This document shows positions 1-5,185 of a DNA stretch of 31,378 nt, in pieces. Each line of letters begins with the position of its first letter. Within the stretch, counting starts at the first letter, position 1. A program made the position numbers and the translations under genes. Location: IMG/VR virus record IMGVR_UViG_2667527976_000002; one strand, 5' to 3'. The notes under the pieces were generated by a model that made no database searches, had not been told where the DNA came from, and saw nothing but the letters and a program-made list of their open reading frames with translations. This DNA is from a virus (lineage: Duplodnaviria; Heunggongvirae; Uroviricota; Caudoviricetes).

Positions 1-160
1 TTTTTGATGATCGCGTCACCAAACTCGCTGAACATTTCAGCAGTTTAGCGCCTTCCATCAGACGTTCGAAGTCATAGGTTACAGTCTTGGCGTTGATCGC
101 GCCTTCCATACCTTTAACAATCAGGTCTGCGGCTTCAGTCCAGCCCATATGGCGCAGCAG
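1..160 (-). pseudogene. icd: Orphan 3' fragment of the isocitrate dehydrogenase gene (last ~53 codons); prophage attachment-site remnant
   Basis: Reverse-complement translation reads [44 protein letters not shown]..., matching the Icd C-terminal region. Similarity stops abruptly near 158 where AT-rich DNA begins, and no icd body follows. An apparent 2-nt insertion near 26-27 breaks the frame before the expected EFGDAII end (judged against my recollection of E. coli Icd). Confidence 0.6.
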
Positions 161-640
161 TATATAAAAACATTAAGTTTAAGTCATTGATATTTAATAA
201 TAAAAATTATTTTATTGTTTTTTTATTAGCCAAAATCAACTTTATTCAACCATTTGATTTCATTGACGTTCGTTTTTATTTTGGGGAAAGGTTTTATCTA
301 CCATTTATATCAAAATTACAAGTCTACATTTTATTAACATCTCAATACATGTGAGGCCTTGCAGACCTTTGCGAGAGCTTATGTGTCTCAGTTTTGTCCC
401 ACCTTTTATTACGACTTGCATAGCCAATGAAGATAAATGTAGTTAATGCCTGTTATGAGCGAGGAGTGGACGTAAAAGAATTTTTAAAAATTTAAGGCTT
501 ACTAAGGTAACAAGTATCAGAGAATCTCATGAACCTATTGCTGCGTCCTAGCAGAACGAAATTTCTCTCTACTTAATACTAAAATTGTTTTATATTTTTC
601 GTAGTCTTTTGTCACTAAGTTTGTTCGTACTTGATATAAT
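161..640. other. AT-rich non-coding region next to the att junction (possible attP arm remnant)
   Basis: No ORF of 60 aa or more on either strand; strongly AT-rich with A/T runs, adjacent to the end of icd homology. Assignment as an integrase/IHF-binding arm is inference only. Confidence 0.3.
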
Positions 641-642
641 TT

Positions 643-972
643 TTAAAAATGGCTTTCGAAATCTCGTTCGAATGTAGTAGGACTTACAACCAAATCATGT
701 ACAGCGTCAACTAAATGCTGTGCTAATGAATATTTGAATTGGAGTGACTGCAAGTTTTCTTTATTGATTAATTTATATTTATCAGGGTCCACAGTATTTC
801 CTTCATTATTGAAGGGATAGATCCATTGTCCATGTGCTAGCTTGTTTCGTATTTCTATCAGGATTCGTAGCTCATTCGACAAAACATCATGTAATGCTGC
901 TCTTCGTGCGGCATGTGCTATCCCAAGAGTCCTTTCATCCAGCAGGAAACAAACTAATCCCTGTTTTGGGCC
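643..972 (-). pseudogene. Truncated Abi-like protein fragment with HEPN-type Rx4HG motif
   Basis: Open frame without an ATG runs 972 to 643 (the track ORF begins at a TTG at 880-882). Translation contains ILIEIRNKLAHGQW, which fits the Rx4-6H HEPN motif common in abortive-infection proteins. The frame is closed by a stop at 973-975 immediately next to the sit promoter, so the N-terminal part is missing. Confidence 0.35.
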
Positions 973-980
973 TCAAAGAT

Positions 981-999
981 GTTAATGATAATCATTTTC
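981..999 (+). promoter_or_regulatory. Fur box upstream of sitA
   Basis: gttaatgataatcattttc matches the 19-bp Fur consensus GATAATGATAATCATTATC at 17 of 19 positions, about 80-95 nt upstream of the sitA start. Confidence 0.6.
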
Positions 1000-1021
1000 A
1001 TTCTGTATAGGTTATGCTATA

Positions 1022-1043
1022 AAACATAGCCGTTGCTATGTTT
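1022..1043 (+). promoter_or_regulatory. MntR operator upstream of sitA
   Basis: Perfect inverted repeat aaacatagc-cgtt-gctatgttt, the same palindrome type as the MntR site of mntH (AAACATAGC...GCTATGTTT), about 33 nt upstream of the sitA ATG. Confidence 0.6.
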
Positions 1044-1075
1044 GTTCTAATTTTGCTCACTATAGGTACTAAATT

Positions 1076-1990
1076 ATGCGCTCAATAAAAAAAGTAACCA
1101 TGCTCTTGGGGGGCCTCGCACTCACCTGCTCGATCGCATTTCAGGCAAGTGCAACTGAAAAATTCAAGGTCATTACAACATTTACCATCATCGCAGATAT
1201 GGCCAAAAACGTGGCTGGAGATGCTGCAGAAGTCTCATCCATAACCAAGCCCGGTGCAGAAATTCATGAGTATCAGCCTACCCCTGGCGATATTAAACGT
1301 GCGCAGGGGGCACAACTGATTCTCGCCAATGGTATGAATCTGGAATTGTGGTTCCAACGCTTTTACCAGCATCTTAATGGGGTTCCAGAAGTAATTGTCT
1401 CTTCGGGTGTGACGCCAGTAGGGATCACTGAAGGCCCCTATGAGGGCAAACCTAACCCCCATGCCTGGATGTCGCCAGATAATGCTCTGATTTACGTCGA
1501 TAATATTCGTGATGCGTTGATAAAATACGATCCGGCAAATGCACAAACCTACCAACGTAATGCCGATACTTATAAAGCCAAGATTACCCAAACCCTTGCC
1601 CCCCTGCGTAAGCAGATTGCTGAACTCCCTGAGAATCAGCGATGGATGGTCACCAGTGAAGGGGCTTTTTCTTATCTCGCACGCGATTTGGGGCTAAAAG
1701 AGCTTTATCTGTGGCCGATTAATGCCGATCAACAAGGCACGCCGCAGCAGGTACGTAAGGTTGTTGATATGGTGAAGAAAAATCATATCCCGGCAGTCTT
1801 TAGCGAGAGTACGATTTCCGATAAACCAGCGCGTCAGGTTGCGCGTGAAACCGGCGCGCACTACGGCGGTGTACTCTATGTCGATTCCCTGAGCACAGAA
1901 AACGGCCCGGTACCTACGTATATCGACCTTCTGAAGGTTACTACCAGTACGCTGGTACAGGGAATTAAAGCCGGGAAAAGGGAGAAATAA
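1076..1990 (+). CDS. sitA: Periplasmic Mn/Fe-binding protein of ABC transporter (cluster A-I / TroA-like), SitA
   Basis: 304-aa ORF with signal peptide ([26 protein letters not shown]); ATG start at 1076; stop overlaps the sitB start. Confidence 0.9.
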
Positions 1991-2817
1991 TGATGCAATC
2001 TGCGGGCATTGTCGTTAATGATGTTACTGTCACCTGGCGTAACGGGCACACAGCACTGCGCGATGCATCCTTCACAGTACCAAGTGGATCTATTGCCGCT
2101 CTGGTTGGGGTAAACGGTTCCGGAAAATCGACGTTGTTTAAAGCGATTATGGGATTTGTGCGTCTGACCAGCGGAAAGATATCTGTTCTGGGTATTCCCA
2201 CGCGACAGGCGCTACAGAAAAACCTGGTTGCCTACGTCCCTCAGTCAGAAGAGGTTGACTGGTCATTTCCTGTACTAGTGGAAGATGTGGTGATGATGGG
2301 CCGCTATGGGCACATGGGTATGTTGCGTATAGCCAAAAAGAGGGATCGTCAGATTGTCACCGATGCGCTGGAACGTGTCGATATGGTGGATTTTCGCCAT
2401 CGACAAATCGGCGAGCTTTCCGGTGGACAAAAGAAACGCGTCTTTCTGGCGAGAGCGATTGCACAGCAGGGTGATGTGATCCTGCTGGATGAACCTTTTA
2501 CCGGCGTTGATGTGAAAACCGAAGCGAAAATCATCAGCCTGTTGAGGGAGTTACGCGCGGAAGGCAAGACGATGCTTGTCTCAACGCACAATCTCGGCTC
2601 AGTCACGACATTTTGCGATTATACGGTCATGGTCAAAGGCACCGTCCTGGCAAGCGGGCCGACAGACACCACTTTTACAGCCGAGAACCTGGAGCTGGCT
2701 TTTAGCGGCGTACTGCGCCATGTCACACTTAACGGCTCGGAAGAAAGCATTATTACTGACGATGAACACCCTTTTGTGGCACATCGACCGTCAGCGGTGC
2801 AGGGGGAAGCAAGATGA
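1990..2817 (+). CDS. sitB: ABC transporter ATP-binding protein SitB
   Basis: 275 aa; Walker [13 protein letters not shown] signature LSGGQKKR, Walker B ILLDEP; start overlaps sitA stop (translational coupling). Confidence 0.9.
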
Positions 2818-3671
2818 ACGTGCTACTGGAACCCTTCAGCTATGAATATATGCTCAATGCGATGTGGGTCTCGGCGATGGTCGGCGGTCTCTGCGCTTTC
2901 CTGTCATGCTATCTGATGCTAAAAGGCTGGTCGCTGATTGGCGATGCGCTGTCGCACTCTATTGTCCCAGGTGTTGCGGGGGCATATATGCTGGGGCTTC
3001 CGTTTTCTCTGGGAGCCTTCTTTTCCGGCGGACTGGCAGCGGGCAGCATGCTGTTTCTTAACCAACGCACTCGCTTAAAAGAAGATGCCATCATCGGCCT
3101 GATCTTCTCCTCCTTTTTTGGCCTGGGGCTGTTTATGGTGTCATTGAACCCGACATCCGTGAACATTCAGACCATCGTCCTGGGCAATATTCTGGCAATC
3201 GATCCGGCGGATATCCTGCAACTCACTATCATTGGCATTCTCTCGATCATCGTGCTTTTTTTCAAATGGAAAGATCTTATGGTGACCTTTTTCGACGAGA
3301 ATCACGCTCGTGCTATTGGATTGCATCCGGGCAGATTAAAAATCCTCTTCTTCACCCTGCTGTCGGTTTCGACCGTTGCGGCGCTGCAAACGGTTGGTGC
3401 CTTTCTGGTGATCTGTCTGGTGGTGACTCCCGGTGCAACAGCATGGTTGTTAACCGATCGTTTTCCCCGCCTGCTCATAATTGCTGTAACTATTGGCAGT
3501 GTAACCAGTTTCCTCGGCGCGTGGGTCAGTTACTTTCTGGACGGCGCGACAGGTGGAATCATCGTGGTGGCGCAGACACTGCTGTTTCTTTTAGCATTTG
3601 TATTTGCGCCCACCCATGGGCTTTTGGCAAATCGTCGGCGTGCGCATAAAGCGCTGGAGGATCGCTCATGA
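2814..3671 (+). CDS. sitC: ABC transporter permease SitC
   Basis: 285-aa polytopic hydrophobic protein; start overlaps sitB stop by 4 nt. Confidence 0.9.
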
Positions 3672-4525
3672 TGGCATTATTACTGGAGCCACTGCAGTTC
3701 ACCTTTATGAGTCACGCACTGCTGATTTCACTGGTAGTTTCCATACCCTGTGCGCTGCTGTCGGTCTTTCTGGTCCTGAAAGGTTGGGCACTGATGGGTG
3801 ACGCGATGAGTCATGCGGTTTTTCCTGGCATCGTGCTTGCCTGGATTCTGGGGTTACCTCTGGCTACAGGGGCATTCGTCGCCGGAGTATTCTGCGCGGT
3901 GGCGACGGGATACCTGAAAGACAACAGCCGAATCAAGCAAGATACAGTGATGGGGATTGTTTTTTCTGGCATGTTTGCCGCAGGTCTGATCTTGTATATT
4001 GCAGTCAAACCAGACGTACATCTTGACCATATTCTTTTCGGCGACATGCTCGGGGTAACCATCGGCGATATAATCCAGACGGTGATTATTGCCGGGCTGG
4101 TTACACTTGTTATTAGCGTAAAATGGCGGGATTTTTTGCTGTTCAGCTTTGATTATCAACAGGCGCAGGTAAGCGGTTTGCATACGAGATGTCTGCATTA
4201 TGGGCTGCTGTGCATGGTCTCTCTGACCATTGTGGCGACGCTGAAAGCGGTAGGTATCATTCTCTCCATTTCTCTGCTCATTGCGCCTGGCGCCATTGCG
4301 GTACTCCTGACACAACGCTTTCATATTGCGCTCCTACTGGCGATTGGCATATCGGTAATAGTGTCAATGACTGGTGTCTGGTTGTCCTTTTTTATCGACA
4401 GTGCACCAGCTCCGACGATTGTCGTCTTATTCGCGGTTGTGTTCATCATGACGTTCACCGTTACCAGCATCAACGCACGCACAAAGGGAAACACCCATAC
4501 ACAGGATTTGTCATCACCCAATTAG
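3668..4525 (+). CDS. sitD: ABC transporter permease SitD
   Basis: 285-aa hydrophobic paralogue of SitC; ATGATG start overlaps sitC stop. Confidence 0.9.
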   Translation: MMALLLEPLQFTFMSHALLISLVVSIPCALLSVFLVLKGWALMGDAMSHAVFPGIVLAWILGLPLATGAFVAGVFCAVATGYLKDNSRIKQDTVMGIVFSGMFAAGLILYIAVKPDVHLDHILFGDMLGVTIGDIIQTVIIAGLVTLVISVKWRDFLLFSFDYQQAQVSGLHTRCLHYGLLCMVSLTIVATLKAVGIILSISLLIAPGAIAVLLTQRFHIALLLAIGISVIVSMTGVWLSFFIDSAPAPTIVVLFAVVFIMTFTVTSINARTKGNTHTQDLSSPN

Positions 4526-4689
4526 CACAACATCCGAGGGCAGCATCGTCCGCTGGCCCACAGAAGTCCGGAAAGTCATGGAAGGTCGTTGTTGGGAGGA
4601 GGTACAAATTCTCTCATGCAAAAAATACGTAAAATCGATAATAGCTGGAAATAATTCAATACATGCACTCTCGAAAGTGCATCAGCCAA

Positions 4690-4723
4690 CCGCAGAACGT
4701 TATTGCATACAACGTTTCTGCGG
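4690..4723. repeat. Imperfect palindrome (12/13-bp arms, 9-nt loop) in the sitD to tail-fibre spacer
   Basis: ccgcagaacgtt-attgcatac-aacgtttctgcgg; a second shorter palindrome atgcact-ctcgaa-agtgcat lies at 4663-4682. Neither is followed by a T-run on either strand. Confidence 0.4.
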
Positions 4724-4876
4724 CATAATCCCAATGATTACTCCCTGACAGGGTTCGTAGGCCACTCAATATCAGGTGCAGTTGATGTATCAACACGGTT
4801 CAGCAGCATCCGATACTTTTTCCAGGCTTCCAGCAACGGGGTTTCTTCCTCCGTTGCATATACAGCTCACCTTTTT

Positions 4877-5176
4877 TCACCCACGATTAACCAACAGCCA
4901 GACCAGCAGACACGCCACCACCGGCACAGCAAAATCCATCAGGCTTGCCACATCCCATGCACGTGTATCAAAACCGCCCCACCACGGCATATTCATTCGC
5001 TTGCCATGCCCGAACATTTCGATCCAGCGATATTCTGCCTGGGTGTGTTCACGCGCAATGAAGAACGTACAACCGGCTATCGCCCCGTAAGCCCAGTTCC
5101 CGGTAAAAAGACCAATCAGTAGCTGCGCAGCCACAGCACAAAGCGCATGAAGGAAAGGTGTTATATCCATTTTCAT
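4877..5176 (-). CDS. Hypothetical small membrane protein (about 97-99 aa, three hydrophobic segments)
   Basis: Track ORF 4877-5185 begins at a TTG. In-frame ATGs at 5174-5176 and 5168-5170 (the latter with AGGA 6 nt upstream) are more plausible starts. The product MKMDITPFLHALCAVAAQLLIGLF... is hydrophobic. Function not recognised. Confidence 0.35.
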   Translation of the reverse strand: MKMDITPFLHALCAVAAQLLIGLFTGNWAYGAIAGCTFFIAREHTQAEYRWIEMFGHGKRMNMPWWGGFDTRAWDVASLMDFAVPVVACLLVWLLVNRG

Positions 5177-5185
5177 CCTACCCAA

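Follow-up and report, generated by a model that had tools for sequence, protein, structure and literature searches.

What is the ATG-free open reading frame that lies beside the sit promoter of this prophage, and how did it come to have its present limits? The window, that is the whole stretch of 31,378 nucleotides that was analysed, begins with a fragment of icd, continues through AT-rich DNA and then enters the divergently oriented sitABCD genes (sitA start at 1076). In between, the minus strand holds an open frame at 643-972 which, read from the sequence, runs from 972 to 646 as 109 sense codons (GPKQGLVCFLLDERTLG...FERDFESHF; the start is also given as GPKQGLVCFLLDERTLGIAHAARRAALHDVLSNELRILIEIRNKLAHGQW) and then meets a TAA at 643-645. 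It encodes ILIEIRNKLAHGQW, and RefSeq annotates nothing at this position. The original prediction was of a 110-codon frame without an ATG, carrying a HEPN motif and left behind as the 3' remnant of an abortive-infection-like gene. It was right about the frame and its motif. The first elements to be placed are:

1-163, minus strand: 3' fragment of icd, which marks the attachment-site end of the prophage, from the RefSeq annotation of the identical region in strain UPEC132.
832-849, minus strand: HEPN Rx4H motif R140-N141-K-L-A-H145 (CGA AAC AAG CTA GCA CAT), read from the sequence.

The 109-aa translation has 47 homologues (E 5e-65 to 1e-8), many of which are longer at both ends. Pfam gave no match to this fragment (E up to 10) or to an intact Klebsiella homologue, P0048 (E up to 1), and the fragment's lack of a Pfam match is what speaks for a frame and a motif that arose by chance in AT-rich intergenic DNA. 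We rejected this explanation, to which we give next to no probability: besides the 47 protein matches, an intact gene shares 92% gap-free DNA identity with the locus, and the fragment matches phrog_12663 (PHROGs v4, function listed as unknown) at E 3e-44 (positions 113-205). The intact protein matches the same family at E 1e-68 (profile positions 4-239 of 246).

The gene from which the frame derives is 243 codons long. It is uninterrupted in metagenomic contig L002 and in E. coli NH-21 (L009:9006-9737, WP_338850341.1, 'hypothetical protein'). By tblastn, residues 109-243 of P0048 matched window 942-538 with 83.7% identity over 135 residues (E 6e-68). Window 456/464-942 aligned to the intact genes without gaps, the 92% DNA identity being to L002 and that to L009 being 87%. 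The frame thus belongs, as had been supposed, to the 3' remnant of a longer gene, of which 135 of the 243 codons are kept. The parts of the remnant and its surroundings are:

538-942, minus strand: pseudogene body, which corresponds to codons 109-243 of the 243-aa HEPN-family gene and covers helix 3 (bearing the catalytic motif), helix 4 and the helices of the C-terminus; from tblastn and the gap-free DNA alignment.
643-645, minus strand: nonsense mutation AAA (K208) to TAA; the intact homologues have K here, and the tail downstream is in frame.
535-537, minus strand: ancestral stop codon, from colinearity with intact C-termini.
456-534, minus strand: conserved 3' flank of the ancestral ~1.1-kb module; DNA homology to L009, L002 and L035 stops at 456-464, and four unrelated contexts share the limits of the module.
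943-975, minus strand: sit-upstream DNA that is open by chance, ten codons GPKQGLVCFL (943-972) plus the bounding TGA (973-975), common to plasmid sit loci and unlike the intact genes.
981-999, plus strand: Fur box of the sit promoter, GTTAATGATAATCATTTTC, with a 17/19 match to the consensus GATAATGATAATCATTATC and none in 100 shuffles.

The frame is real, but both of its ends had been misplaced, the true body running from 942 to 538 with its stop at 535-537, and the nonsense mutation at K208 had been overlooked. On the 3' side, the premature TAA ends the remnant's frame 36 codons early, and after it an in-frame tail, KLYQVRTNLVTKDYEKYKTILVLSREKFRSARTQQ, runs to the ancestral stop, colinear with the C-termini of the intact homologues. 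On the 5' side, gene-derived sequence begins at 942 and the ten codons of 943-972 are foreign to the old gene. The in-frame TGA at 973-975 does adjoin the Fur box, 5 nt away, as had been noticed, but it bounds the frame 5' and is not the gene's own stop.

Compared with the other members of phrog_12663 (the cluster of WP_338850341.1 and P0048), the window copy has lost its first 108 codons and has gained a nonsense codon. It starts at residue 109, just before helix 3, and keeps the Rx4H helix and helix 4; missing are the promoter, N15, helix 1, helix 2 with E59, and the insert with W90. The N-terminal 108 codons were sought by tblastn across the 31-kb window and none were found. A functional start that might have been missed was also looked for and did not appear: the longest start-codon ORF in the remnant is a 79-aa frame from a TTG at 882 with no Shine-Dalgarno-like sequence upstream. 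A sigma-70 promoter scan of window 150-1150 gave sites no more numerous than in shuffled sequence.

The position of the 5' break was defined by two further elements:

940-4554, plus strand: sit cassette, the promoter region and sitABCD (1076-4525), which the sit locus of an IncF plasmid matches at 97% across precisely this span; from ORFs and RefSeq annotation.
940-942, no strand: recombination junction, a CAG common to both parents; intact-gene homology stops at 942, and sit loci on plasmids and elsewhere on chromosomes align from 939/940 onward.

In 5,426 complete E. coli genomes, every sit locus that does not belong to this phage lineage becomes homologous to the window at 939/940, those at a second prophage site beside uspF included. 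As the match to the intact gene goes no further than 942, the break is where the sit cassette ends. The left end of sit lies at 939/940 in ~2,350 sit-positive E. coli genomes, in three settings (the icd phage, the uspF-adjacent prophage and IncF plasmids), and homology of ~960 sit plasmids to the window begins at 940. The proposal that the gene was cut off at the sit promoter therefore holds, with the break falling within 3 nt of the fixed left end of sit and just upstream of the Fur-regulated promoter. Set side by side, with a slash after the shared CAG, the intact gene reads ...CATCCAG/AGGTGC, the plasmid ...CGTCAG/CAGGAAAT and the window ...CATCCAG/CAGGAAAC; the overlap at 940-942 is 3 nt, and no IS scar is visible.

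The sit cassette behaves as a discrete unit of ~3.6 kb, window 940-4554. The idea that the remnant is itself part of this mobile cassette was rejected, as neither the ~960 sit plasmids nor the uspF-site prophages have the remnant, and both part from the window exactly at 939/940. At 1022-1043, between the Fur box and sitA, lies a perfect inverted repeat, AAACATAGC-N4-GCTATGTTT, which a terminator scan mis-called as a hairpin. We take this repeat to match the MntR operator of mntH, in which case sit would have dual Fur/MntR control.

A simple insertion of sit into the gene was rejected, because the 108 N-terminal codons are absent from the whole window; this points to replacement or deletion. 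In the mechanism that we propose, the ancestor would have been a sit-carrying lambdoid phage, Bievrevirus-like and integrating at icd, with the intact gene in the accessory 'b' region beside attP. Illegitimate recombination via the 3-nt CAG microhomology would have joined the fixed left end of sit to codon 109, removing the promoter and codons 1-108 and with them HEPN helix 1, helix 2 with its conserved acidic residue, and the helical insert. What was left of the gene has drifted since then: K208 became TAA here, and sister lineages carry a 148-bp deletion, an IS1 insertion and additional deletions. Neither the 5,426 complete E. coli genomes nor IMG/VR yielded an ancestral phage that has the intact gene in this place, so we infer the order of events, and with it that the arrival of sit itself caused the truncation. 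The suggested comparison with related prophages at icd likewise gave no intact version: the two intact copies among the complete E. coli genomes are in Qin-like prophages, and the IMG/VR search for an intact copy yielded just a P2-like prophage fragment and the same sit-phage remnant.

The truncation could also have been separate from the arrival of sit, if sit had first landed at another point of the b region and the DNA between the end of sit and codon 109 had been deleted later, possibly through IS1. The absence of the gene's 5' half beyond sit, where a simple insertion would have left it, fits such a course, as does the fact that IS1 adjoins sit on plasmids and has inserted near the junction in several genomes. 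However, the left end of sit at 939/940 is identical everywhere, and a later deletion must have stopped exactly there; moreover, the junction at 940-942 shows just the CAG overlap, with no scar of an IS. We consider two separate events unlikely, and prefer a single recombination at the end of sit.

Window 1-5179 is 98% identical to isolated, plaque-forming temperate Bievrevirus phages (Lambda_4C10, which is L026, LR595861.1; 4A7, D2, 1W and 3W). The sitABCD genes are thus carried by an active phage. Lambda_4C10 has three additional 'mobile element protein' genes between its tail fibre gene and sit, and a segment of ~255 bp right after sitD (window 4546-4800) is missing in Lambda_4C10 and L003, with both flanks matching. 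In window 5213-31378, the sizes and orientation of the ORFs (1131, 854, 801, 641 and 533 aa) form a minus-strand lambdoid late-operon pattern, and by this measure the large ORFs are consistent with tail fibres, a J-like tip, a tape measure, a portal and a terminase. With such a layout, the place of sit and the remnant past the tail fibre genes would be the classic b-region moron slot.

The break point of the remnant is identical in 298 of the 5,426 complete E. coli genomes and is shared by six isolated temperate phages of the genus Bievrevirus (those named are Lambda_4C10, 4A7, D2, 1W and 3W). In these isolated phages the remnant sits between sitA and the attP-int-xis region, and they carry the same TAA at K208, Lambda_4C10 included. 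One sister lineage has a deletion of window 490-637 (148 bp), and others have shorter remnants, larger deletions and IS1 insertions. A 237-kb E. coli record classed as a plasmid (NZ_AP026904.1, 72550-73230) contains the whole remnant and the sit junction at 99.7% identity, unlike the other ~960 sit plasmids; either a phage that has integrated into a plasmid or a problem of assembly may explain it.

In another sister variant (L003-L008), a 1-nt deletion in the sit promoter region, at the equivalent of window 973-978, changes TTTGAGG to TTTGGG, so that the TGA is lost and a TTG start is gained. This fortuitous TTG leads gene callers to report a 120-aa ORF (P0001), a spurious product that appears in public gene calls in 98 blocks of the assembly collection. 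On the window branch, 15 nonsynonymous and 8 synonymous changes were counted, against 10 and 18 on the intact branches (Fisher p = 0.05; small counts), and pairwise dN/dS between intact copies was 0.07-0.12. This pattern of substitution is consistent with relaxed constraint on the remnant, though marginally, the counts being small.

Could the fragment still work, as a short protein of 79 aa from TTG 882 or 120 aa in the variants with the junction TTG, for example as a dominant-negative partner or as a decoy for incoming HEPN toxins? Its 109 codons are open and include the catalytic helix, one sister variant has gained a start and a called product, and the remnant is retained in the 298 genomes and six isolated phages. 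Such a protein, however, would be without HEPN helices 1-2 and the conserved E59, N15 and W90, and TTG 882 is preceded by neither an ATG nor a Shine-Dalgarno-like sequence. The lesions of the different lineages (nonsense codon, 148-bp deletion, larger deletions, IS1) are mutually incompatible, the nonsynonymous excess points to decay, and the persistence of the remnant is accounted for by phage copies that have spread recently and are nearly the same (98-100% identity). A working fragment is therefore very improbable, and the fragment is very probably a dead relic. We conclude, with a probability of about 0.85, that a ~1.1-kb cargo gene, truncated at the end of the sit cassette, has left a non-functional relic at window 456-942 (minus strand). 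The feature is an ordinary pseudogene from an uncharacterised family.

That family has intact members in the two E. coli Qin-like prophages, in Klebsiella (P0048), Rahnella, Vibrio and others. It gave 472 matches in a 90%-clustered collection and 509 clusters in a HMMER scan of 1.84 billion cluster representatives, and nearly all of the best 150 of the 509 representatives are single-domain proteins of ~240 aa. For cargo of mobile elements, protein identity is unusually high, at 67-80% among Enterobacteriaceae, Vibrio, Idiomarina, Pseudomonas and a cyanobacterium. In an alignment of 63 relatives (25-64% identity), N15, W90, R140, N141, H145 and G146 are invariant, and conservation is 90% or more at E59, A144, Q147, L192 and F199. 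AlphaFold gives intact P0048 an all-helical, confident model (pLDDT 91, pTM 0.87).

The HEPN signature is an Rx4-6H motif in which the R is immediately followed by a polar residue, N/D/H (PMC3710099), and R140-N141-K-L-A-H145, with its R, N and H invariant in the 63 relatives, is such a motif. In the HEPN anatomy of Anantharaman et al. 2013 the motif lies at the end of core helix 3 and the start of the loop to helix 4 (PMC3710099); in the predicted structure of P0048, a long helix (116-144) has R140 and N141 at its end and the loop after it opens with H145, which puts the motif in the same position. The catalytic signature also includes, with R, N and H, a conserved acidic residue in helix 2 (PMC3710099). 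In the intact family this residue is E59, in the form E-x3-[KR], and in the P0048 model it stands in the second long helix (41-66) as E59-T-R-L-R63 (E-x3-R); the region is deleted from the window copy. A helical insert stands between this second helix and the motif helix, and the predicted fold resembles the four-helix up-and-down bundle of solved HEPN domains. The HEPN reading of the motif in the original prediction is thereby upheld: the motif is the Rx4H signature, invariant throughout a family whose anatomy is that of HEPN. We infer that the parent protein is a stand-alone member of the HEPN superfamily and a predicted metal-independent RNase.

Assignment to a known family is less close. 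Searches of the 109-aa translation against PADLOC and NCBIfam gave just matches to the HEPN-motif region of Cas13b/e (E ~0.01), too weak alone to classify the fragment, and neither it nor P0048 had a PADLOC match beyond the weak Cas13b HEPN-motif region (E ~0.01). Profile searches of PDB sequences with two alignments gave no match at E up to 10, and Foldseek against PDB and BFVD returned helical-bundle noise, with no E below 0.08.

The nearest curated family, marginally, is RiboL-PSP-HEPN (PF18735, of the HEPN clan), which 11 of the 63 relatives, divergent ones, match weakly; the window fragment and the close intact relatives do not match it. One such relative, P0247, scores 29.4 bits against a gathering score of 28.4, its residues 14-151 aligning to profile positions 3-162 of 191 with the RNxxxH included. 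RiboL-PSP-HEPN proteins are found in fusion with an L-PSP endoRNase or in a ParB operon (PMC3710099). Neither arrangement was seen for the phrog_12663 family in about ten genomic contexts, and compared with PF18735 the family has ~90 extra C-terminal residues.

The protein resembles Abi_2/AbiD/AbiF in being a stand-alone HEPN protein with R-N-x3-H on mobile elements, and the fragment weakly matches the 'abortive infection resistance protein' family phrog_2158 (E 0.004). Membership of Abi_2/AbiD, which had been suggested, did not survive the protein search, however: the Abi_2 Pfam profile was matched neither by the fragment (E up to 10) nor by the intact protein (E up to 1), and it was not among the top families of the 63 relatives. 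The description as Abi-like thus holds just at the level of the superfamily. Compared with the HEPN toxins of HEPN/MNT pairs (PDB 7ae2, 5yep), the protein is ~100 residues longer, with a sequence identity of 7-10%, and no MNT nucleotidyltransferase or NTP-transferase gene adjoins the intact gene in any context examined.

The intact gene moves as a module of ~1.1 kb that has the same ends in four unrelated settings. Between L009, L011, L002 and L035, DNA homology spans from ~300 bp upstream to ~80 bp downstream of the gene, with near-identical end points. In the two Qin-like prophages of E. coli and at several chromosomal sites of the Klebsiella type, the gene lies beside a Septu-like PtuA/PtuB pair. 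The Rahnella P2-like prophage carries it between the tail genes gpS and gpV; in cassette arrays of Vibrio integrons its neighbours are ParE/Phd and an ApeA-HEPN gene, and on a cyanobacterial plasmid it lies near Mrr and HNH genes. It is also found in ICE/T4SS regions of Sodalis and Pseudomonas.

The copies in L011-L018 (6001-9955), L009 and L037 consist of a near-identical intact gene followed by a 47-aa minus-strand ORF and then by PtuA (530 aa) and PtuB (279 aa, HNH), and occupy three or more chromosomal sites; an ISEc52 interrupts ptuA in E. coli NH-21. A role as third component of a Septu-like system was considered and rejected, the linkage to PtuA/PtuB being confined to these near-identical Klebsiella and E. 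coli copies and absent in Rahnella, Sodalis, Pseudomonas, Vibrio, Idiomarina, Kovacikia and L002. In L029 (6001-8052), L030 and L035, the intact gene of the Rahnella P2-like prophage is followed by a 338-aa gene with a faint HEPN_AbiU2 match, and the same pair also occurs in a non-prophage context, so these two genes may form a module. Across about ten contexts, no partner gene was conserved.

From its mobile-element contexts, the parent family would be stand-alone HEPN RNase cargo, most likely a defence or abortive-infection toxin, a reading that we hold tentatively and at slightly below even odds. More specifically, and a little less probably, it may be an unrecognised single-gene HEPN RNase defence/Abi system that moves as the ~1.1-kb module between cargo slots; these would be the lambdoid b and nin regions, the P2 gpS-gpV interval, Vibrio integron cassettes, ICEs and plasmids. 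The family could instead be an addiction toxin, a regulator or a mobile-element RNA-binding protein that has kept the Rx4H motif, as might be suggested by the lack of a PADLOC model, the unassigned PHROG function and the lack of a conserved partner. However, the strictly invariant R, N and H together with the acidic residue of helix 2 are the catalytic signature of HEPN RNases (PMC3710099), and defence neighbours recur (Septu-like PtuAB, the AbiU2-like gene, Mrr, HNH and the ApeA-HEPN gene). We regard a role outside defence as somewhat unlikely.

For annotation, the region between the icd fragment and sitA is a pseudogene fragment at 535-942 (minus strand), rather than a 110-codon or a 120-aa ORF. 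Its junction with sit is an exact scar at the molecular level, by which the gain of sit is dated and oriented; the recipient, an active temperate phage lineage, is found in ~5% of complete E. coli genomes. As for the parent family, it is well conserved, has a confident predicted structure, matches nothing in Pfam, PADLOC or the PDB sequences with its core members, and sits in classic defence hotspots; it is a cheap candidate for a phage-defence screen. If the defence reading is true, the sit phage shows a virulence/fitness cassette overwriting a defence gene at the same hotspot.
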